A stretch of 21,775 bases of DNA from a virus (Duplodnaviria > Heunggongvirae > Uroviricota > Caudoviricetes). Both the position numbers and the translations under genes were made by a program. Below, in pieces: positions 11,992 through 21,194 of this stretch. The stretch is taken from the IMG/VR virus record IMGVR_UViG_2565956731_000002; one strand, given 5' to 3'. The notes beneath the pieces were generated by a model, which was given only the letters and a program-made list of their open reading frames with translations, ran no database searches and was not told the origin of the DNA. The number at the start of each line of letters is the position of its first letter. The stretch's first letter is position 1.

Positions 11992-12161
11992 TGGCTACAC
12001 CGCTTATTCGTGTCATGAACGGACACATCTACAAAGTACCAAATCGTCGTAAGCGTAAACCTGAGCTGAAGCCATCCGAAATACCAACACTGCTCGGGTA
12101 TACCGCCAGCCTGGTTGATAAAAAATGGTTGCGACTGGCAGCAAGGAGGAATCATGGCTGA
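11991..12161 (+). CDS. ninE: NinE-family small protein, 56 aa (below the ORF-track size cut-off)
   Basis: ATG at 11991 overlaps the upstream stop (TAATG); translation [56 protein letters not shown]; its end overlaps the next start. Confidence 0.6.
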   Translation: MATPLIRVMNGHIYKVPNRRKRKPELKPSEIPTLLGYTASLVDKKWLRLAARRNHG

Positions 12162-12444
12162 TTTAAGAAAAGCAGCGCGTGGTCGGGAATGCCAGGTAAG
12201 AATCCCTGGCGTATGTAATGGCAATCCTGAAACGTCAGTACTGGCACATATCCGGCTGGCTGGATTGTGCGGTACCGGTATCAAACCGCCAGACCTGATT
12301 GCCACCATTGCATGTTCTGCCTGCCACGACGAAATCGACCGTCGCACGCATTTTGTTGACGCTGGATATGCAAAAGAATGCGCGCTGGAAGGTATGGCGA
12401 GAACACAGGTTATCTGGTTGAAAGAGGGGGTTATTGAGGCGTGA
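12154..12444 (+). CDS. ybcO: YbcO-like nin-region protein (Cys/His-rich, putative nuclease), 96 aa
   Basis: ATG at 12154 preceded by [48 protein letters not shown]…[11 protein letters not shown]; sits between ninE and rusA as in DLP12. Confidence 0.6.
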
Positions 12445-12803
12445 ATACCTACAGCATCACATTACCCTGGCCTCCGAGCAATAATCGCTATTACCGCCAT
12501 AATCGTGGGCGCACGCACGTCAGCGCAGAGGGGCAGGCATACTGCGATAACGTCGCCCGAATCATTAAAAACGCAATGCTGGATATCGGCTTGGCTATGC
12601 CAGTGAAAATCAGCATTGAGTGCCACATGCCGGATCGCCGTCGCCGTGACCTTGATAATCTGCAAAAGGCCGCTTTTGACGCACTCACCAAAGCAGGTTT
12701 CTGGCTGGATGATGCTCAGGTCGTTGATTACCGCGTTGTGAAGATGCCCGTTACCAAAGGTGGGAAGCTGGAGCTGACTATCACTGAACTGGGAGATGAA
12801 TGA
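12441..12803 (+). CDS. rusA: RusA Holliday-junction resolvase
   Basis: Translation [34 protein letters not shown]…[39 protein letters not shown]… recognised as RusA; GTG start overlapping the ybcO stop. Confidence 0.9.
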
Positions 12804-12940
12804 TGTTTGAGTCTTATATGGCAGAGCGTCTTCGCCGCCGCTGGGTGCGCCTGCGCTTATATCGTTTTCCTGGTTCTGTTTTGACCGATTACCGAATACT
12901 GAAGAATTACGCCAAAACCCTGACAGGAGCAGGAGTATGA
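12800..12940 (+). CDS. ylcG: YlcG-like small protein, 46 aa (below the ORF-track size cut-off)
   Basis: ATGATG at 12800 overlapping the rusA stop; [46 protein letters not shown]; stop at 12938..12940; same position as ylcG between rusA and Q in DLP12. Confidence 0.5.
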
Positions 12941-13025
12941 AGTCAGAGATAACAATCAACTAATACTGTTTTGTTGATTTTTGCTTGTAATTGGCGTTCT
13001 GGTCTGATTTTTGTGGAGTAAGTTG

Positions 13026-13409
13026 ATGCGTGATATTCAGATGGTTCTTGAGCGTTGGGGAGCGTGGGCGGCTAATAATCATGAAGATGTGACCTGGTCG
13101 TCCGTTGCCGCCGGTTTTAAGGGATTAATTCCTTCAAAAGTAAAATCTCGCCCGCAATGTTGTGACGATGACGCGATGATCATTTGCGGGTGCATGGCCC
13201 GTCTGAAAAAGAACAACAGCGATTTACACGATTTATTAGTAGATTATTATGTATGTGGTATGACATTCATGTCACTGGCAAGTAAGCATTGCTGCTCGGA
13301 TGGTTATATCGGGAAAAGGTTACAGAAGGCTGAGGGCATAATTGAAGGGATGTTAATGGCATTAGATATCCGGTTAGATATGGATATCGTTGCTAATAAT
13401 TCTAATTGA
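13026..13409 (+). CDS. quuD: Late-gene antiterminator Q (DLP12 QuuD-like)
   Basis: [26 protein letters not shown]…[18 protein letters not shown]… recognised as QuuD-type Q; ATG at 13026 with GGAG upstream (the ORF track begins at an upstream TTG at 13011). Confidence 0.85.
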
Positions 13410-13424
13410 TATGCAATTGTTTAC

Positions 13425-13597
13425 TAAAAGTTATTAAAAATGGGGCGTGGAAACGCCCCCAAAATAAAGGGTAATATATAACAGAAGGTTTATATAGTAA
13501 GAAGCAAGGTAGTGCTTCTAAAGGAAGTGGCTTGAGGGCTCCACTTATATGTTGCGGAGGCAAAGCCTCCCGCAACATATCTTTTTCGTAAGTCAGA
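13425..13597 (-). ncRNA. ipeX: nmpC 3' UTR with its own minus-strand terminator; corresponds in position to the IpeX regulatory RNA described downstream of nmpC/lc
   Basis: Highly structured stretch between the porin stop (13598) and a minus-strand hairpin GGGGCG-TTTCCA-CGCCCC (13442..13459) followed by AUUUUUAAUAACUUUU. The published description places ipeX between the nmpC stop and its terminator. Confidence 0.4.
13547..13588 (+). terminator. Plus-strand intrinsic terminator about 140-180 nt downstream of Q; candidate tR'-type terminator of a short 6S-like late leader
   Basis: ATATGTTGCGGAGG-CAAAG-CCTCCCGCAACATAT (about 14-bp stem with one bulge) followed by CTTTTTCG. It is not a terminator on the minus strand, where there is no U-run after the hairpin. 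Confidence 0.5.
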
Positions 13598-14680
13598 TTA
13601 GAACTGATAAACCAGACCTACAGCGACGATGTCGTCGGTATCAATACCAGCTGTTTTGGTAAACTTACTATCGTCAATTAAGTTGATTTTGTAATCAACA
13701 AAAGTGGACATGTTTTTATTAAAGTAGTAAGTAGCACCGACATCGACATACTTGACTAAGTCTCGGTCACCATGAACACCAAGGTCTTTACCTTTTGACT
13801 GAAGGTAAGCAACAGATGGTCGCAGACCGAAGTCAAACTGATATTGTGCTACTGCTTCAAAGTTTTGTGCTTTGTTTGCAATATGGTTATTACCAAAAAC
13901 GGTCATATTCTGAGTTTCAGAATATGTGGTAGCCAGATAGATATTGTTCGCATCATATTTCAGGCCTGCAGCCCATACTTCCGCATTTTTGCCGGAGGCA
14001 TTGAATTTGCTCTTACCATAGGCGACCTGACCGTCAGTGCGATCTGATTTAGCATAGGTTGCACCCACGCCGAATCCTTCATACTCATAAGTAGTGGAGA
14101 AACCGAAACCATCACCATTGGCTTCAGTTACGTCAGTGCGGTCATTTTTACCCTGATACTGAGCAGCAAAGTTCAGGCCATCGACCAGACCAAAGAAGTC
14201 GTTGTTACGATAAGTTGCAACACCAGTAGTGCGACCAGTCATGAACACATCTGTTTGGGTCCAGGTATCACCACCGAATTCTGGCAGGACGTCAGTCCAC
14301 GCACCGATGTCGTATGCTACACCGTAGTTACGGCCGTAATCGATTGAGCCGTAATCACCAAATTTCAGGCCTGCAAATGCAAGACGGGTTTTGTCTTTGG
14401 AAGAACCTTGAGATTCAGCACGGTTGCCTTTGAATTCATATTCCCACTGACCGAAACCAGTCAGTTGATCGTTGATTTGGGTTTCACCTTTGAAGCCAAG
14501 ACGGGCATAAGTAGTATCACCATCATCTGCATCATTAGAGGAGAAGTAGTGCTTGGCATTAACTTTCCCGTATAGATCCAGCTTGTTACTGTCTTTATTA
14601 TAAATTTCAGCTGCCTGAGCAGACATCGCCATCAGTACTGATGCAGCTACAGCAGAAATTGCCACTGTTAATTTTTTCAT
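13598..14680 (-). CDS. nmpC: OmpC/OmpF-family general porin (NmpC / Lc type), intact, with signal peptide
   Basis: [40 protein letters not shown]… and the C-terminal …VAVGLVYQF are typical enterobacterial trimeric porin; location between Q and the holin as in DLP12/PA-2. Confidence 0.9.
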
Positions 14681-15108
14681 TGTACGCCCTTTTTTTTGAA
14701 CTATTATTAAAAAATGATGTCACTGCGCGATAAATATTCATCTAATCAATGCGATTATTTCAAGATGTAAGTTTTAGTTTCTCATTTAATTTGTGAAGTA
14801 GATCTCTATTTTTATCTGAACCTTTTCTATCTAATCCTATTCATGGCTCTTGTTTGAACGAAAATAAATCTATTAGCTAATTTATATTAATGGCACTTAT
14901 TTATAAGCGCTCTATAATTCTTTAACTTAATTTAAACAAACTAAAAATAACATCGGAAATTATTCATTGGTTATTTGTTGAAGTTTTCTTATGTATTTGT
15001 GGTGGTGTTTTGAACACTCGGTGGCATTCTCACAAATATCATTTAGTAGTTTACGTACGTAAAAAATTGGTTATGCTGTTAAGAGTGGTTACTTCGTCAC
15101 ACAGCTTA

Positions 15109-15140
15109 AACCCGCCGTCGAGCGGGTTTTTCCATTTTTT
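15109..15140 (+). terminator. Plus-strand intrinsic terminator inside the 590-bp AT-rich region between the porin start and the holin
   Basis: AACCCGC-CGTCGA-GCGGGTT hairpin followed by TTTCCATTTTTT; no ORF of meaningful size upstream on the plus strand. Confidence 0.55.
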
Positions 15141-15269
15141 GAGTCTCGATATTAGCTGATAACCCAATACCTGAGTTATTCACTGACTCCGAATCTGTTA
15201 CGTTTCTGCCTTTATTGCGATACGTAGTATCCCCTTAATTTACACCCGCTTTGTCTGCGAGGTGGGGTT

Positions 15270-15485
15270 ATGAAATCCATGGATAAGTTAACAACGGGTG
15301 TCGCCTATGGCACCTCAGCAGGTAGTGCCGGGTACTGGTTTTTACAGTTGCTCGATAAAGTCACGCCCTCACAGTGGGCGGCAATAGGTGTGCTGGGTAG
15401 TCTGGTATTTGGCTTGCTGACGTATCTGACAAACCTTTATTTCAAGATTAAAGAAGATAAGCGTAAGGCTGCGAGAGGTGAATAA
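15270..15485 (+). CDS. essD: Phage 21-type class II holin/pinholin with dual-start motif (Met1-Lys-Ser-Met4)
   Basis: [71 protein letters not shown] closely matches S21 as remembered; GAGGTGGGG ribosome-binding site; stop overlaps the next start (TAATG). Confidence 0.85.
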
Positions 15486-18400
15486 TGTCGCCATCATTAC
15501 GCAAGGCTATTGCTGCTGCTATTGGTGGTGGGGCTGTTGCCATAGCGTCTGTGCTCATCACTGGTCCGAGTGGTGACGATGGCCTGGAAGGTGTCAGCTA
15601 CATACCATACAAAGATATTGTTGGTGTATGGACTGTATGTCACGGGCATACAGGAAAAGACATCATGCTCGGTAAAACGTATAAAGGCAGCAGTAAGGGG
15701 CATACCCCGCGCGAAGCGAAGGACAACCTGAAATCCACGCAGTTACTGAGTGTGATCGATGCCATCAGCGAAGGGCCGATTGAAGGTCCGGTGGATGGGT
15801 TAAAAAGCGTGCTACTGAACAGTACGCCGGTGCTGGACACTGAGGGGAATACCAATATCTCCGGTGTCACGGTGGTGTTCCGGGCAGGTGAGCAGGAGCA
15901 GACTCCGCCGGAGGGGTTTGAATCCTCCGGCTCCGAGACGGTGCTGGGTACGGAAGTGAAATACGACACGCCGATCACCCGCACCATCACGTCGGCAAAC
16001 ATCGACCGTCTGCGTTTTACCTTCGGTGTGCAGGCACTGGTGGAAACCACTTCAAAGGGTGACCGGAATCCGTCGGAAGTTCGCCTGCTGGTTCAGATAC
16101 AGCGTAACGGTGGCTGGGTGACGGAAAAAGACATCACCATTAAGGGCAAAACCACCTCGCAGTATCTGGCCTCGGTGGTGGTGGATAACCTGCCTCCGCG
16201 CCCGTTCAATATCCGGATGCGCAGGATGACACCGGACAGCACCACAGACCAGCTGCAGAACAAAACGCTCTGGTCGTCATACACCGAAATCATCGATATG
16301 AAACAGTGCTACCCGAACACGGCACTGGTCGGTGTGCAGGTGGACTCGGAGCAGTTCGGCAGTCAGCAGGTGAGTCGTAATTATCATCTGCGCGGGCGCA
16401 TTCTGCAGGTGCCGTCGAACTATAACCCGCAGACGCGACAATACAGCGGTATCTGGGACGGAACGTTAAAACCGGCATACAGCAACAACATGGCCTGGTG
16501 TCTGTGGGATATGCTGACCCATCCGCGCTACGGCATGGGGAAACGTCTTGGTGCGGCGGATGTGGACAAATGGGCGCTGTATGTCATCGGCCAGAATTGC
16601 GACCAGTCGGTGCCGGATGGTTTTGGTGGCACGGAGCCGCGCATCACCTGTAATGCCTGGCTGACCACACAGCGTAAGGCGTGGGATGTTCTCAGTGATT
16701 TCTGCTCGGCGATGCGCTGTATGCCGGTATGGAACGGGCAGACGCTGACGTTCGTGCAGGACCGGCCGTCGGATAAGGTGTGGACCTATAACCGCAGTAA
16801 TGTGGTGATGCCGGATGATGGCGCGCCGTTCCGCTACAGTTTCAGCGCCCTGAAGGACCGCCATAATGCCGTTGAGGTGAACTGGATTGACCCGGATAAC
16901 GGCTGGGAGACGGCGACAGAGCTTGTGGAGGACACGCAGGCCATTGCCCGTTACGGTCGTAACGTCACGAAGATGGATGCCTTTGGCTGTACCAGTCGGG
17001 GGCAGGCACACCGAGCCGGGCTGTGGCTGATTAAAACGGAACTGCTGGAAACGCAGACCGTGGATTTCAGCGTGGGCGCAGAAGGGCTTCGCCATGTGCC
17101 GGGCGATGTTATTGAAATCTGCGATGATGACTATGCGGGTATCAGCATCGGCGGGCGCGTGCTGGCGGTGAACAGCCAGACCCGGACGCTGACGCTCGAC
17201 CGTGAAATCACTCTGCCATCCTCCGGTACCACGCTGATAAGCCTGGTTGACGGAAGCGGCAATCCGGTCAGCGTGGAGGTCCAGTCCGTCACCGACGGCG
17301 TGAAGGTAAAAGTGAGCCGGGTTCCTGACGGCGTTGCCGGATACAGCGTGTGGGGGCTGAAGTTGCCGACGTTGCGCCAGCGCCTGTTCCGCTGCGTGAG
17401 TATCCGTGAGAACGATGACGGCACGTATGCCATCACTGCCGTGCAGCATGTACCGGAAAAAGAGGCCATCGTGGATAACGGGGCGCACTTTGACGGCGAC
17501 CAGAGCGGCACGGTGAATGGTGTCACGCCGCCAGCGGTGCAGCACCTGACTGCCGAAGTCACCGCAGACAGCGGGGAATATCAGGTGCTGGCGCGCTGGG
17601 ACACGCCGAAGGTGGTGAAGGGGGTGAGCTTTATGCTTCGCCTGACCGTGGCAGCGGATGACGGCAGTGAGCGGCTGGTCAGCACGGCCCGGACGACGGA
17701 AACCACATACCGCTTCACGCAACTGGCGCTGGGGCGGTACACGCTGACAGTCCGGGCGGTAAATGCGTGGGGGCAGCAGGGCGATCCGGCGTCGGTATCG
17801 TTCCGGATTGCCGCACCGGCAGCACCGTCGAGGATTGATCTGACGCCGGGCTATTTTCAGATAACCGCCACGCCGCATCTTGCCGTTTATGACCCGACGG
17901 TACAGTTTGAATTCTGGTTCTCGGAAAAGCGGATTACCGATATCAGGCAGGTTGAAACCACAGCCCGCTATCTTGGCACGGCGCTGTACTGGATAGCTGC
18001 CAGTATCAATATTAAGCCGGGCCATGATTATTATTTTTATATCCGCAGTGTGAATACTGTTGGCAAATCGGCATTCGTGGAGGCTGTCGGTCAGGCGAGC
18101 GATGATGCTTCCGGCTATCTGGATTTTTTCAAAGGCCAGATAACTGAATCCCATCTCGGCAAGGAGCTGCTGGAAAAAGTCGAGCTGACGGAGGATAACG
18201 CCAGCAAACTGGAGGAGTTTTCGAAAGAGTGGAAAGACGCCAACGATAAATGGAATGCCATGTGGGGCGTCAAAATTGAGCAGACCGAAGACGGCAGGCA
18301 TTATGTCGCGGGTATTGGCCTCAGCATGGAGGATACGGAGGAAGGCAAACTGAGCCAGTTCCTGGTTGCCGCTAACCGTATCGCGTTTATTGACCCGGCA

Positions 18401-19075
18401 AACGGGAATGAAACGCCGATGTTTGTGGCGCAGGGCAACCAGATATTCATGAACGAAGTGTTCCTGAAGTATCTGACGGCTCCCACCATTACCAGCGGCG
18501 GCAATCCGCCGGTATTTTCCCTGACACCGGACGGGCGGTTGACGGCGAAAAATGCCGATATCAGCGGTAACGTGAATGCGAACTCAGGGACGCTCAATAA
18601 TGTCACGATTAACCAGAACTGTCGGATTCTGGGAAAACTGTCTGCCAACCAGATTGAAGGTGATATTGTCAAAACGGTGGGAAAAGCCTTTCCGAGAAAT
18701 GGCAGTTATGCCAGCGGTACAATAACGGTCACTGTGTACGATGACCAGGCTTTTGACCGTCAGATAGTAATCCCACCCGTTCTGTTTCGCGGTGGTAAGC
18801 ATGAAAACTTCAACAGCAACAACCAACAGTCATACTGGTATTCAACCTGTAAGCTGCAGGTACTGAAGAACGGACAGGAAATCTTTCAGCAACCCGCGAC
18901 GGATGTCAGCAGGGTATTTTCATCCGTCATTGATATGCCAGCGGGACACGGCCATGTCACCCTGACTTTCAATGTTTCTTCATATGGTGCAAATAACTGG
19001 ACGCCAACGACCAGTATCAGCGACCTTCTTGTTGTCGTGATGAAGAAATCAACAGCCGGTATCAGTATCAGTTGA
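15485..19075 (+). CDS. J: In-frame deletion fusion: first ~65 codons of a SAR endolysin (R21-like) joined to nearly full-length tail-tip host-specificity protein J (from J residue ~3)
   Basis: N-terminus [66 protein letters not shown] matches the R21 SAR endolysin start; from ~15677 the sequence [39 protein letters not shown]… is lambda J from its N-terminus through >1000 aa. The last ~150 aa diverge from lambda J. Confidence 0.85.
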
Positions 19076-19093
19076 ATTTTATAACCCAAATAC

Positions 19094-19120
19094 GGGCGCC
19101 AGAAATGGCGCCTTTTTTAT
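19094..19120 (+). terminator. Intrinsic terminator after J
   Basis: GGCGCC-AGAAAT-GGCGCC hairpin followed by TTTTTTATTT, 20 bp after the J stop. Confidence 0.55.
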
Positions 19121-19133
19121 TTGTGGAGTGAAT

Positions 19134-21194
19134 ATGGCAGTACAGATTTCAGGCGTGCTGAAAGACGGTGCAGGAAAACCAATACAGAACTGTACTATTC
19201 AGCTCAAAGCAAAGCGTAACAGCACCACGGTACTGGTGAACACGGTGGCCTCTGAAAATCCGGATGAAGCCGGGCGTTACAGCATGGATGTTGAGTATGG
19301 CCAGTACAGCGTCACCCTGCTGGTTGAAGGTTTTCCGCCTTCACATGCCGGGACCATTACCGTCTATGAAGGTTCCAGACCAGGTACGCTGAATGATTTT
19401 CTCGGTGCCATGACGGAAGATGATGTCATGCCGGAGGCATTGCGTCGTTTTGAGGTAATGGTGGAGGATGTGGCACGCAACGCTGAAGCCGCCTCTCAGA
19501 GCGCAGCGGCAGCAAAGAAATCAGAAACAGCAGCGGCATCGTCCAGGAACGCGGCGAAAACATCAGAGACGAATGCAGGTAACAGCGCGAAAGCGGCAGC
19601 TTCTTCAAAAACAGCCGCACAAAACGCAGCAACAGCGGCAGAACGTTCAGAGACAAATGCCCGTGCGTCAGAAGAAGCCTCCGCAGACAGTGAAGAGGCT
19701 TCCCGCCGTAATGCAGAGTCAGCCGCTGAAAATGCCGGAGTCGCCACCACAAAAGCGCGGGAGGCTGCAGCAGACGCAACAAAGGCCGGGCAGAAAAAGG
19801 ATGAGGCTCTGTCGGCAGCGACACGAGCTGAAAAGGCGGCAGACCGCGCAGAAGCCGCAGCGGAAGTGACTGCAGAGCCCTATGCGAATATAGTGCCGCC
19901 GCTGCCTGATGTGTGGATACCGTTTAACGATTCACTGGATATGATTGCGGGTTTTTCTCCGGGCTATAAAAAAATAGCTATTGGTGACGATGTGGTTCAG
20001 GTCGCCAGTGATAAACAGGTTAATTTCAGTCGCGCATCAACGGCAACATATATCAACAAATCTGGCGAACTGAAAACGGCGGAAATTAATGAGCCGCGAT
20101 TTGAGTGTGATGGCCTGCTTATTGAGGGACAAAGAACGAACTACATGCTCAATTCGGAAAGTCCAGCCAGCTGGGGGAAGTCATCAAACATGGATGTGCC
20201 CGAAACCGGGACGGATAGTTTTGGTTTTACTTATGGAAAGTTTGTCTGCAACGATTCTCTGGTTGGGCAAACTTCGGCTATTAATATGGCATCAATTGCT
20301 GCAACAAAGTCAGTTGATGTCTCAGGCGATAACAAGTACGTGACAACCTCATGCCGTTTTAAAACAGAACGACAGGTAAGGTTACGTATACGGTTTGATA
20401 AGTATGATGGTAGTGCAACAACTTTTCTTGGCGATGCGTACATTGATACGCAAACGCTTGAAATTAATATGACAGGTGGTGCTGCCGGCAGAATTACGGC
20501 ACGAGTCAGGAAGGATAAGACCACGGGCTGGATTTTTGCAGAGGCAACGATTCAGGCAATTGATGGTGAGTTAAAAATAGGCTCTCAGATACAGTATTCT
20601 CCTGAGCAGGGTGGGGCAACAGTATCTGGTGACTATATTTATCTTGCCACCCCACAAGTAGAGAATGGGCCGTGTGTATCATCATTTATTATTTCAGGAG
20701 GCAGCGCAACGACAAGAGCCAGTGATTTGGTTAGTATCCCCACCAGAAATAATCTTTATAAGTTACCATTTACTTTTTTACTTGAGATTCATAAAAACTG
20801 GGATATTGCACCAAACGCCGCACCCCGCGTGTGGGATATAGCAGCAGCCAATACCGGGCAATCAGCAATTGCAGCAATCAACAGAGGTAGTGGTAAGTTA
20901 TATATGAGTCTGTCAAACCCTTCAGGCTCGTATGTTAATAGCGCAGCGACAGATGTATTTGCAGAGAAAACCACATTTGGATGTATTGCAAAAGCTGATG
21001 GTCACTTTCATGTGGTGACAAATGGTAAAGCGGTTAATGAAGTTTATTGTGAATATAATGGCGTGACCGCTGATAAAAATATCCGATTTGGAGGGCAGAC
21101 GAATACTGGAGAACGACATCTGTTTGGCCATATTCGCAATTTCCGCATATGGCATAAAGAATTAAATGACAGGCAATTAAAAGAGGTCGTATGA
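19134..21194 (+). CDS. stf: Side tail fibre protein: lambda Stf-like N-terminus, short Ala-rich shaft, and a non-lambda C-terminal domain with a lectin-type (laminin-G / concanavalin-A-like) signature
   Basis: N-terminus MAVQISGVLKDGAGKPIQNCTIQLKAKRNSTTVLVNTVASENPDEAGRYSMDVEYGQYSV… resembles lambda Stf; the C-terminal tail …FGHIRNFRIWHKELNDRQLKEVV fits the conserved end of LamG-type jelly-roll domains. ATG at 19134 with GGAG upstream. Confidence 0.75.
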   Translation: MAVQISGVLKDGAGKPIQNCTIQLKAKRNSTTVLVNTVASENPDEAGRYSMDVEYGQYSVTLLVEGFPPSHAGTITVYEGSRPGTLNDFLGAMTEDDVMPEALRRFEVMVEDVARNAEAASQSAAAAKKSETAAASSRNAAKTSETNAGNSAKAAASSKTAAQNAATAAERSETNARASEEASADSEEASRRNAESAAENAGVATTKAREAAADATKAGQKKDEALSAATRAEKAADRAEAAAEVTAEPYANIVPPLPDVWIPFNDSLDMIAGFSPGYKKIAIGDDVVQVASDKQVNFSRASTATYINKSGELKTAEINEPRFECDGLLIEGQRTNYMLNSESPASWGKSSNMDVPETGTDSFGFTYGKFVCNDSLVGQTSAINMASIAATKSVDVSGDNKYVTTSCRFKTERQVRLRIRFDKYDGSATTFLGDAYIDTQTLEINMTGGAAGRITARVRKDKTTGWIFAEATIQAIDGELKIGSQIQYSPEQGGATVSGDYIYLATPQVENGPCVSSFIISGGSATTRASDLVSIPTRNNLYKLPFTFLLEIHKNWDIAPNAAPRVWDIAAANTGQSAIAAINRGSGKLYMSLSNPSGSYVNSAATDVFAEKTTFGCIAKADGHFHVVTNGKAVNEVYCEYNGVTADKNIRFGGQTNTGERHLFGHIRNFRIWHKELNDRQLKEVV

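Follow-up and report, generated by a model that had tools for sequence, protein, structure and literature searches.

SAR endolysins of the phage 21 R and DLP12 RrrD type are recognized by an N-terminal, weakly hydrophobic helix rich in Gly and Ala, by an E-X8-D-X5-T catalytic motif and by a full lysozyme domain (about 165 aa in all), and their SAR anchor puts cargo on the periplasmic side of the inner membrane (PMC9239132). The tail-tip protein J of lambda is a cytoplasmically folded trimeric hub protein whose assembly needs L, K, I and H (PMC10721106). Both genes are present in Lambda_4C10 (LR595861.1), a complete 49.2-kb lambda-like phage carrying sitABCD, with R at 47412-47909 and J at 15691-19089. 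We analyzed a stretch of 21,775 nucleotides (IMG/VR record IMGVR_UViG_2565956731_000002), referred to in full as the window, where parts of these two genes are joined in a single reading frame. The host element is a decayed lambda-like prophage of E. coli with sitABCD. Its integrase and a replication gene are frameshifted, its immunity region is absent, and IS3, ISEc21 and IS30 stand in that place. The features around the fusion are as follows.

13026..13409, plus strand: intact late antiterminator gene Q (quuD-type), from the ORF ending at 13409; PGAP names it 'antitermination protein QuuD' in FDAARGOS_536, M1/5 and MCJCHV-1
13598..14680, minus strand: prophage-borne OmpC/NmpC-like porin gene, 360 aa, between Q and the lysis genes; an ORF annotated 'porin OmpC'
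14890..14918, plus strand: promoter-like site, candidate late promoter pR' (ATGGCA-17-TATAAT, 10 of 12 consensus matches)
15108..15139, plus strand: terminator-like hairpin and T run, candidate tR' (8-bp stem with 5 GC pairs, then TTCCATTTTT)
15270..15485, plus strand: intact phage-21-type pinholin/antiholin gene, 71 aa, dual start MKSM (Pfam PF04971 'Bacteriophage P21 holin S', E 2e-35, profile positions 1-63 of 64)
15485..15683, plus strand: R', the first 66 codons of a SAR endolysin, truncated (3HDE/4ZPU alignment; match to R of Lambda_4C10 through 15683)
15682-15683, plus strand: deletion junction with a 2-nt overlap, TA, common to both parents (three-way alignment of the window with the R and J regions of Lambda_4C10)
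15683..19075, plus strand: 'J, tail-tip attachment protein J from codon 3 (Lys) to the stop, free of indels and stops (8IYK alignment; gpJ Pfam domains)
19094..19123, plus strand: terminator-like hairpin just past the J stop (8-bp stem with 6 GC pairs, then TTTTTATTTG)
19128..21194, plus strand: side tail-fiber-like gene, 688 aa, retained downstream of J (Pfam phage_tail_N, E 5e-67)

The Q region is 99.4% identical to that of Lambda_4C10, the porin gene occupies the same place there, and the side tail-fiber-like gene is collinear with the gene called 'tail fiber' in that phage. This last gene also has a weak Laminin_G_3 match (25 bits), below the gathering cut-off of 27.6 bits. An Rfam scan of the whole window returned no match.

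Parentage of the endolysin-J chimera

In the ORF list of the window, 15485..19075 (+) is one ORF of 1196 aa, an endolysin' + 'J chimera. Its residues 1-67 align with residues 1-67 of phage 21 lysozyme (3HDE) and of RrrD (4ZPU) at E ~2e-38, in agreement with the sequence-only reading, which had taken the N-terminus for that of a SAR endolysin. As position 67 is a mismatch to both structures, the R-derived part is aa 1-66. Residues 1-30 are near-identical to 3HDE and 4ZPU and contain the Gly/Ala-rich SAR helix (aa 8-26), which is the single hydrophobic peak of the whole fusion, and the catalytic motif is present as E35-X8-D44-X5-T50. Homology to R stops at residue 66, short of a full lysozyme domain, and the Pfam match to Phage_lysozyme is partial (aa 34-83, profile positions 3-45 of 125). 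With its lysozyme fold incomplete, the chimera would not be expected to have muralytic activity.

The remainder of the protein is a lambda-type J running from Lys3 to the stop. Fusion residues 67-1195 align with residues 3-1131 of lambda J (8IYK) with E = 0, which bears out the earlier suggestion that J continues from about residue 3 through more than 1100 residues. All six gpJ domains were detected by Pfam (E 1e-35 to 1e-43), and the series is complete: FNIII-A, the Phage-tail_3 hub, two Ig domains, the tail-tip fiber and the C-terminal receptor-binding domain. From these alignments, the annotated 1196-aa 'gpJ' reads as R(1-66)::J(3-1132). In RefSeq the fusion protein is WP_001556898.1, and most carrier genomes name it 'phage attachment tail tip protein J'.

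Compared with J of Lambda_4C10, the retained part is of equal length (3393 nt) and differs by 132 substitutions, with a dN/dS of 0.075. Given this low ratio relative to an intact J, the divergence dates from before the deletion, when the gene was still part of working phages, and the value reflects only the pre-deletion history of J. An intact J near-identical to that of the fusion was sought to date the deletion, with a synthetic query in which the I gene was combined with J; identity reached only 96.8% at the best intact loci.

The deletion and its junction

The window is collinear with Lambda_4C10 on both sides of the junction, at 99.4% identity to the left and 97.0% to the right. The phage shares Q, the porin gene, holin, R, J, the tail fiber gene and sitABCD with the window, and it carries all of its late genes between R and J. 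Relative to Lambda_4C10, 17,294 bp are missing from the window, a segment that starts within R, ends at J codon 2 and includes Rz, cos and the terminase, head and tail genes. The comparison found no sequence from the interval between the breakpoints in the window. The two halves of the ORF are thus separate, distant genes in the intact relative, and the genes between them, including the tail genes H, M, L, K and I that stand upstream of J in Lambda_4C10, are absent here. This supports the central proposal of the sequence-only reading, that a SAR-endolysin'-'J in-frame fusion marks the loss of the Rz, terminase, head and tail genes.

Three-way nucleotide alignment placed R-derived sequence up to 15683 and J-derived sequence from 15682. 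The fusion had been recognized correctly, whereas its join, put at about 15677 after about 65 codons, was 5-6 nt off and follows 66 codons. The parental flanks do not align at the join, and the only sequence they share is TA. A microhomology at Gly-Lys codons common to both parents had been suggested as the cause. We rejected it: GGTAAA lies in R at 15671-15676, and the J copy, which has lost its GG, would be shifted by 9 nt, at 15680-15685. Microhomology-mediated deletion is therefore not demonstrated, as a 2-nt overlap can be explained by chance. By calculation, an in-frame join is expected in 1 of 3 cases and a microhomology of at least 2 nt with a probability of ~0.16, and neither the frame nor the overlap exceeds chance. 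The nucleotide sequences, with no substantial homology at the junction, point to illegitimate recombination.

Similar chimeras of independent origin are found in other prophage remnants, namely R(1-67)-gpW (R'-'W), R(1-110)-Lom (R'-'Lom) and portal'-'J. Further R'-'J fusions were looked for by a protein search with a 146-aa segment spanning the junction, in which the fusion itself is not listed because its 90% cluster is represented by a normal J. The top match of this search (P0001) was rejected as an R'-'J fusion, being a J with an internal duplication.

Distribution and fate of the fusion gene

The identical junction was found in 79 of 5,426 complete E. coli genomes. The fusion ORF occurs at 100.0% identity in at least 60 records, ST1193 strains included, and the exact protein is present on at least 1,000 contigs; the carriers are E. 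coli ST1193 and its close relatives. Lambdoid prophages are rich in repeats and the carriers hold several J copies, which could invite the explanation that the fusion is a sequencing or assembly artefact, such as a repeat collapsed between two prophages. We found no evidence in support of this. The 79 genomes were assembled independently in many laboratories, and parents sharing only 2 nt at the join offer no repeat to collapse, leaving an artefact with almost no probability.

Between the window and ST1193 strain MCJCHV-1 there are 5 SNPs in 14.1 kb (~0.035% in the flanks) and none in the ORF, where this comparison leads to an estimate of ~1.3 SNPs expected in 3.6 kb. With carriers 100.0% identical and flanks diverged by ~0.035%, the conservation therefore lacks the statistical power to test selection, and so little time has passed in this lineage that neutral decay of the ORF would not yet be expected. 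Conservation of the ORF reflects only clonality. A frameshifted variant (P0052) was considered as evidence of decay and rejected, as 10.3 kb of its assembly, CP054325.1, show 3 mismatches but 8 gap positions, a pattern typical of long-read indel errors. IS4, on the other hand, lies inside the fusion ORF in 3 of the 79 junction-bearing genomes, and the ORF is therefore dispensable. The earlier choice between a neutral scar and a selected protein leans toward neutrality on these two grounds, the IS4 insertions and clonality. We consider it highly probable that the chimeric ORF is an ordinary scar of prophage decay left by an illegitimate deletion and that it is most likely selectively neutral; we saw nothing that points to a selected function.

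Several observations count against reading the ORF as a scar. It is intact in most carriers, it has a good ribosome-binding site, and it is translationally coupled to an intact holin gene. The intact Q gene and the promoter-like site upstream would also make expression possible. The site at 14890..14918 may serve as pR', given its consensus match and its position between Q and the holin gene, and the hairpin at 15108..15139 may be tR' by analogy with lambdoid pR'-tR' units. The holin gene, annotated essD, was said earlier to be intact, and the nearly full-length Pfam match agrees; its stop overlaps the ATG of the fusion, which keeps the ribosome-binding site of R (SD GAGGT).

The start of translation bears on a second explanation, in which the relevant product is a near-native cytoplasmic J made from an internal start at Met61 (ATG 15665; a 6-residue N-terminal change), or in which the J and tail-fiber DNA serves as a recombination reservoir. 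By either route, co-resident or superinfecting lambdoid phages would gain this tail-tip specificity. The R-derived ATG at 15665, upstream of the junction, is a weak candidate start with a weak AGGA 9 nt before it, and a gene caller chose it in one assembly (P0052). J is full length and undamaged, and carrier genomes typically hold 3 further J-homologous places per record. However, this SD, itself situated within a translated ORF, is a poor one. We found no in-frame start with an SD after the junction in the fusion ORF, and the ATG, codon 2 and SD of J were deleted according to the three-way alignment, so the independent J start that would have spoken against a fusion is missing. Any such rescue may be incidental rather than selected, and the IS4 knock-outs count here too. 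We regard this explanation as unlikely.

A third explanation takes the chimera for an envelope protein under selection, with J exported by the SAR segment to the periplasmic face of the inner membrane. There, or after release on depolarization by the pinholin, the receptor-binding domain would bind an outer-membrane receptor, acting as a superinfection-exclusion factor or decoy or in an envelope or vesicle role. The frame is intact, with the ribosome-binding site of R, coupling to the holin gene and the SAR helix, and the whole set of J domains is kept, including the C-terminal receptor-binding domain, in a very successful clone. Against this, IS4 knock-outs persist in 3/79 genomes, clonality accounts for the conservation, and the frame would be kept by chance in 1 of 3 cases. 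Moreover, J is a trimeric hub folded in the cytoplasm and cannot assemble without L, K, I and H (PMC10721106), Q no longer has the immunity and early region by which it would normally be driven, and other random chimeras of the same kind exist. The SAR anchor also predicts a location on the periplasmic face of the inner membrane, which does not suit the earlier term 'surface protein'. A selected envelope protein is thus very unlikely. Slightly less credible still is its fullest form, a chimera expressed from the Q/pR'/pinholin late unit, exported by SAR and working for the host, in the periplasm or released in vesicles, as a receptor-binding protein that might, for instance, block or decoy phages with the same outer-membrane receptor, and so domesticated as an aid to the success of ST1193.

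Returning to the scar of prophage decay, its most probable ancestor is a lambda-like temperate phage integrated at icd with sitABCD and a porin gene as cargo, Lambda_4C10 being an intact relative. A single illegitimate deletion of ~17.3 kb, from R codon 67 to J codon 2, removed what followed in R together with Rz, cos and every terminase, head and tail gene ahead of J, and the ends were joined in frame by a 1-in-3 chance. The chimera has none of the assembly partners of J in this prophage remnant, which is also deprived of its immunity and early region. If Q-dependent late transcription were to fire, the retained ribosome-binding site of R would yield a Sec-targeted polypeptide anchored in the inner membrane and facing the periplasm. 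Such a polypeptide would have no function, and it might be toxic if it jammed the translocon.

The finding bears chiefly on genome annotation and on prophage natural history. A protein labeled as an ordinary J in RefSeq is really an endolysin'-'J chimera, and the locus shows how an icd prophage with sitABCD in the pandemic ST1193 clone was immobilized: its head, tail, terminase, endolysin and spanin genes are missing, as is the immunity region. The paper on the ST1193 genome has partial prophages and sitABCD in its listing and gives no description of the R'-'J fusion. The junction at 15682/15683 is clean and clone-specific and could be used as a lineage marker. The chimera would count as a case of tail-protein domestication only if the protein were made and had a function.

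Comparison with known systems

Lambda_4C10 is the nearest complete counterpart, with the O and P replication genes, the nin region, Q, porin, holin, the 5′ end of R, J, the tail fiber and the sitABCD-side cargo in common at 96.7-99.9% identity. The 17.3-kb late block and the immunity/recombination region of the phage are missing from the window, which differs from it also in having IS elements. With phage 21 R and DLP12 RrrD (3HDE, 4ZPU) the fusion shares an almost identical aa 1-66, with the Gly/Ala-rich SAR helix and the E-X8-D-X5-T motif, as well as a gene position directly after a P21-type pinholin with overlapping stop and start. Unlike these endolysins, it keeps 66 of 165 residues, and Rz/Rz1 are absent.

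Like lambda J (8IYK) and J of Lambda_4C10, the fusion is collinear from Lys3 to the C-terminus and has every gpJ domain, its receptor-binding domain being nearer to 'A8 gpJ' (9WCA) than to that of lambda J. It differs from both in lacking its own start codon and ribosome-binding site and in bearing a 66-residue prefix predicted to be a membrane anchor, and the partner genes V, G, T, H, M, L, K and I have been deleted from the window prophage. The closest parallels in kind are R'-'W and portal'-'J (NleG prophage) together with R'-'Lom, where, downstream of an intact holin gene, an illegitimate late-region deletion likewise joined the 5′ portion of R, or of a different late gene, in frame to a late gene that had been far away. 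The partner genes and breakpoints differ among these cases, and the window case stands apart in that the partner it keeps is complete and unusually long (1130 aa of J) and in being fixed in a pandemic clone.

A single illegitimate deletion created the R'-'J fusion

The fusion ORF joins the 5' part of the SAR endolysin gene R in frame to the tail-tip gene J. Its ATG overlaps the stop codon of the preceding holin gene (ATAATG).

15270-15485, + strand: holin gene, 71 codons (Pfam 'Bacteriophage P21 holin S', E 2e-35)
15485-19075, + strand: R'-'J fusion ORF, 1196 codons

Parentage was assigned by comparison against solved structures. The first 67 residues of the fusion align with the first 67 of both phage 21 lysozyme (3HDE) and DLP12 RrrD (4ZPU) at E about 2e-38, with position 67 a mismatch, and residues 67-1195 align to residues 3-1131 of lambda J (8IYK) at E = 0. 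Pfam detects part of Phage_lysozyme (aa 34-83, profile positions 3-45 of 125) and, after it, all domains of tip attachment protein J. A sequence-only reading had described an intact holin, about 65 codons of SAR endolysin and J continuing in frame from residue ~3, and each of these elements is borne out. The fusion contains the E35-X8-D44-X5-T50 motif, but with only about 40% of the lysozyme domain left, no lysozyme activity is expected. With this domain incomplete, the ORF does not qualify as a functional SAR endolysin; nor does it as a bona fide J gene, since its own start and the tail gene context are both missing.

The best phage match of the window is Lambda_4C10 (LR595861.1), which in effect represents this prophage in intact form. 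They have in common O, P, an alpha/beta hydrolase, the ybcN-ninE-rusA block, Q, an OmpC-like porin, holin, R, J, tail fibre and sitABCD, and in Lambda_4C10 every terminase, head and tail gene sits between cos and J. Two blocks are collinear, and phage 47611-49207 and 1-15695 have no counterpart in the window in this comparison.

Window 10041-15683: phage 41968-47610, 99.4% identity
Window 15682-21061: phage 15696-21072, 97.0% identity

Relative to Lambda_4C10, 17,294 bp are absent: R from codon 67 to codon 165, Rz with two small ORFs, cos, the 19 CDS that run from small terminase subunit to tail assembly protein I, and the first two J codons with J's Shine-Dalgarno (SD) sequence, which supports the deletion proposed earlier. 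By megablast against phage records, holin-plus-R homology ends at 15683; no phage record spans the junction, the best coverage (84%) being holin plus R only. In a three-way ungapped alignment, R-derived sequence runs up to 15683 (...ACGTATA) and J-derived sequence starts at 15682 (TAAAGGCAGC...), so that the parental overlap is the dinucleotide TA. The proposed Gly-Lys microhomology did not hold: GGTAAA codons exist in both parents, however, the R copy lies at 15671-15676 and the J copy would correspond to 15680-15685, with its GG lost, and this 9-nt difference in register rules out a crossover there. We calculate that random joining gives microhomology of at least 2 nt with probability about 0.16 and an in-frame outcome 1 time in 3; chance therefore suffices, and no special mechanism or selection is required. 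The product of this one deletion is R(1-66)::J(3-1132).

Expression signals and predicted product

Q and the holin gene are intact and R's SD (GAGGT) is retained; the pR/N-dependent transcription by which Q is normally supplied has been lost. Three consensus matches, which do not imply activity, flank or precede the ORF.

14890-14918: promoter-like site
15108-15139: tR'-like terminator
19094-19123: terminator-like hairpin after the J stop

We found no in-frame start with a preceding SD after the junction. The sole alternative start is the R-derived Met61 (ATG 15665), preceded by a weak AGGA. No hydrophobic segment other than the SAR helix (aa 8-26) is present. By analogy with SAR endolysins (criteria in PMC9239132), translation from 15485 would give a product that engages Sec and is anchored N-in/C-out in the inner membrane. 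The J moiety would then point into the periplasm rather than to the cell surface, a topology that does not support the surface protein raised earlier as one possibility. As a trimeric hub protein, J assembles together with gpL, gpI and gpH (PMC10721106). All three partner genes are deleted in this remnant, so J is not predicted to assemble a tail here. Classical LamB-LacZ hybrids jam the translocon; an export signal ahead of a large, fast-folding cytoplasmic protein may do the same, and the possible toxicity would argue, if anything, for low expression.

Conservation, decay and cargo

The J part equals Lambda_4C10's intact J in length and has no stops; the two differ by 104.5 synonymous and 27.5 nonsynonymous changes (dN/dS 0.075), a divergence built up in functional phages. 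Among complete genomes, the nearest intact I-J loci show 96.8% identity. The receptor-binding region (window 18413-19072, +) scores 408 bits against 'A8 gpJ 713' (9WCA) versus 245 bits against lambda J, and therefore its receptor is probably not LamB-type as in lambda. An antisense ORF inside J (16466-18301, - strand, 611 codons), without matching annotation in any genome inspected, is probably a by-product of G+C-rich codon usage in J.

The junction was found in 79 of 5,426 complete E. coli genomes (1-kb query, coverage at least 80%), and at least 60 records carry the whole 3,591-nt ORF at 100.0% identity, among them MCJCHV-1 and the MS10858 series, both described as ST1193 (PMC11488385). In a large protein collection, at least 1,000 contigs encode the exact protein, named 'phage attachment tail tip protein J' or 'host specificity protein J', and its database label is simply J. 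The element occupies the icd site, adjoining sitABCD. The window and MCJCHV-1 differ by 5 substitutions in 14.1 kb, none in the ORF; about 1.3 would be expected there under neutrality, and perfect conservation is therefore uninformative about selection. The ORF is also present in a 237-kb record of strain MY504 (NZ_AP026904.1). Another record, 195 kb and labelled plasmid (p23AR0151A, NZ_CP195449.1), holds at 1-43591 (locus L007) a second copy of the chromosomal icd-prophage remnant-sitABCD-bluF-minCDE segment, which reflects F-prime-like capture or else misassembly; its strain has the chromosomal copy too.

Three junction-bearing genomes (FDAARGOS_536, 21AR0173 and AREA_492) have IS4 inside the J part (window about 18208-18214; 19016-20440 in locus L001), and PGAP splits the interrupted ORF into pseudogenes; the chimera is therefore dispensable. 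The unrelated feral-pig strain RM10740 has IS4 at the equivalent site in a J gene of just 90% identity, which suggests a target hot spot. The left part of the prophage (window 1-5487) is heavily decayed, with frameshifts in integrase and replication gene O, and IS3/ISEc21 stand in place of the immunity/recombination region, joined in ST1193 by IS30.

2456-3532: ISEc21, splitting an IS3-family element where Lambda_4C10 has immunity/recombination genes
5737-10008, + strand: inverse-autotransporter (intimin/invasin-like) gene, 1423 codons, prophage cargo between P and the nin region
19128-21194, + strand: tail-fibre-like ORF, 688 aa (phage_tail_N, Ala-rich linker, weak Laminin_G_3 match)

The inverse autotransporter, whose internal repeats appear as overlapping BLAST matches at 7041-8114, varies in length (3909 nt in FDAARGOS_536, 3552 nt in MCJCHV-1), and M1/5 has only a 1506-nt Ig-like-domain CDS adjoining ISEc52. 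The fibre ORF is intact and runs collinear with its counterpart in the viable phage Lambda_4C10; PGAP nonetheless cuts this stretch in two, an N-terminal 'pseudogene' and a 'head spike fiber' CDS, with boundaries that vary by genome. The fusion is most likely a chimeric ORF of neutral status, and the grounded prophage that carries it would be kept for its cargo of sitABCD, porin and inverse autotransporter. That it is a domesticated, exported receptor-binding protein we regard as very improbable.

Comparison with other R chimeras

No description of this R'-'J fusion was found in the literature searched. Independent chimeras that arose by the same route surfaced in one protein search: P0105, an R(1-110)-Lom protein, and those at locus L004. 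At L004 (1527-3130), within a degraded, unrelated prophage that encodes NleG effectors, the same holin type precedes R(1-67)-gpW, and a portal-J C-terminal chimera follows. The R breakpoint there falls within about one codon of the window's, which may reflect coincidence or fragility of R at this point. The window's fusion is a deletion scar in a defective lambdoid prophage, of a kind already known, and is notable solely for the length and integrity of its J moiety and its fixation in a pandemic clone.
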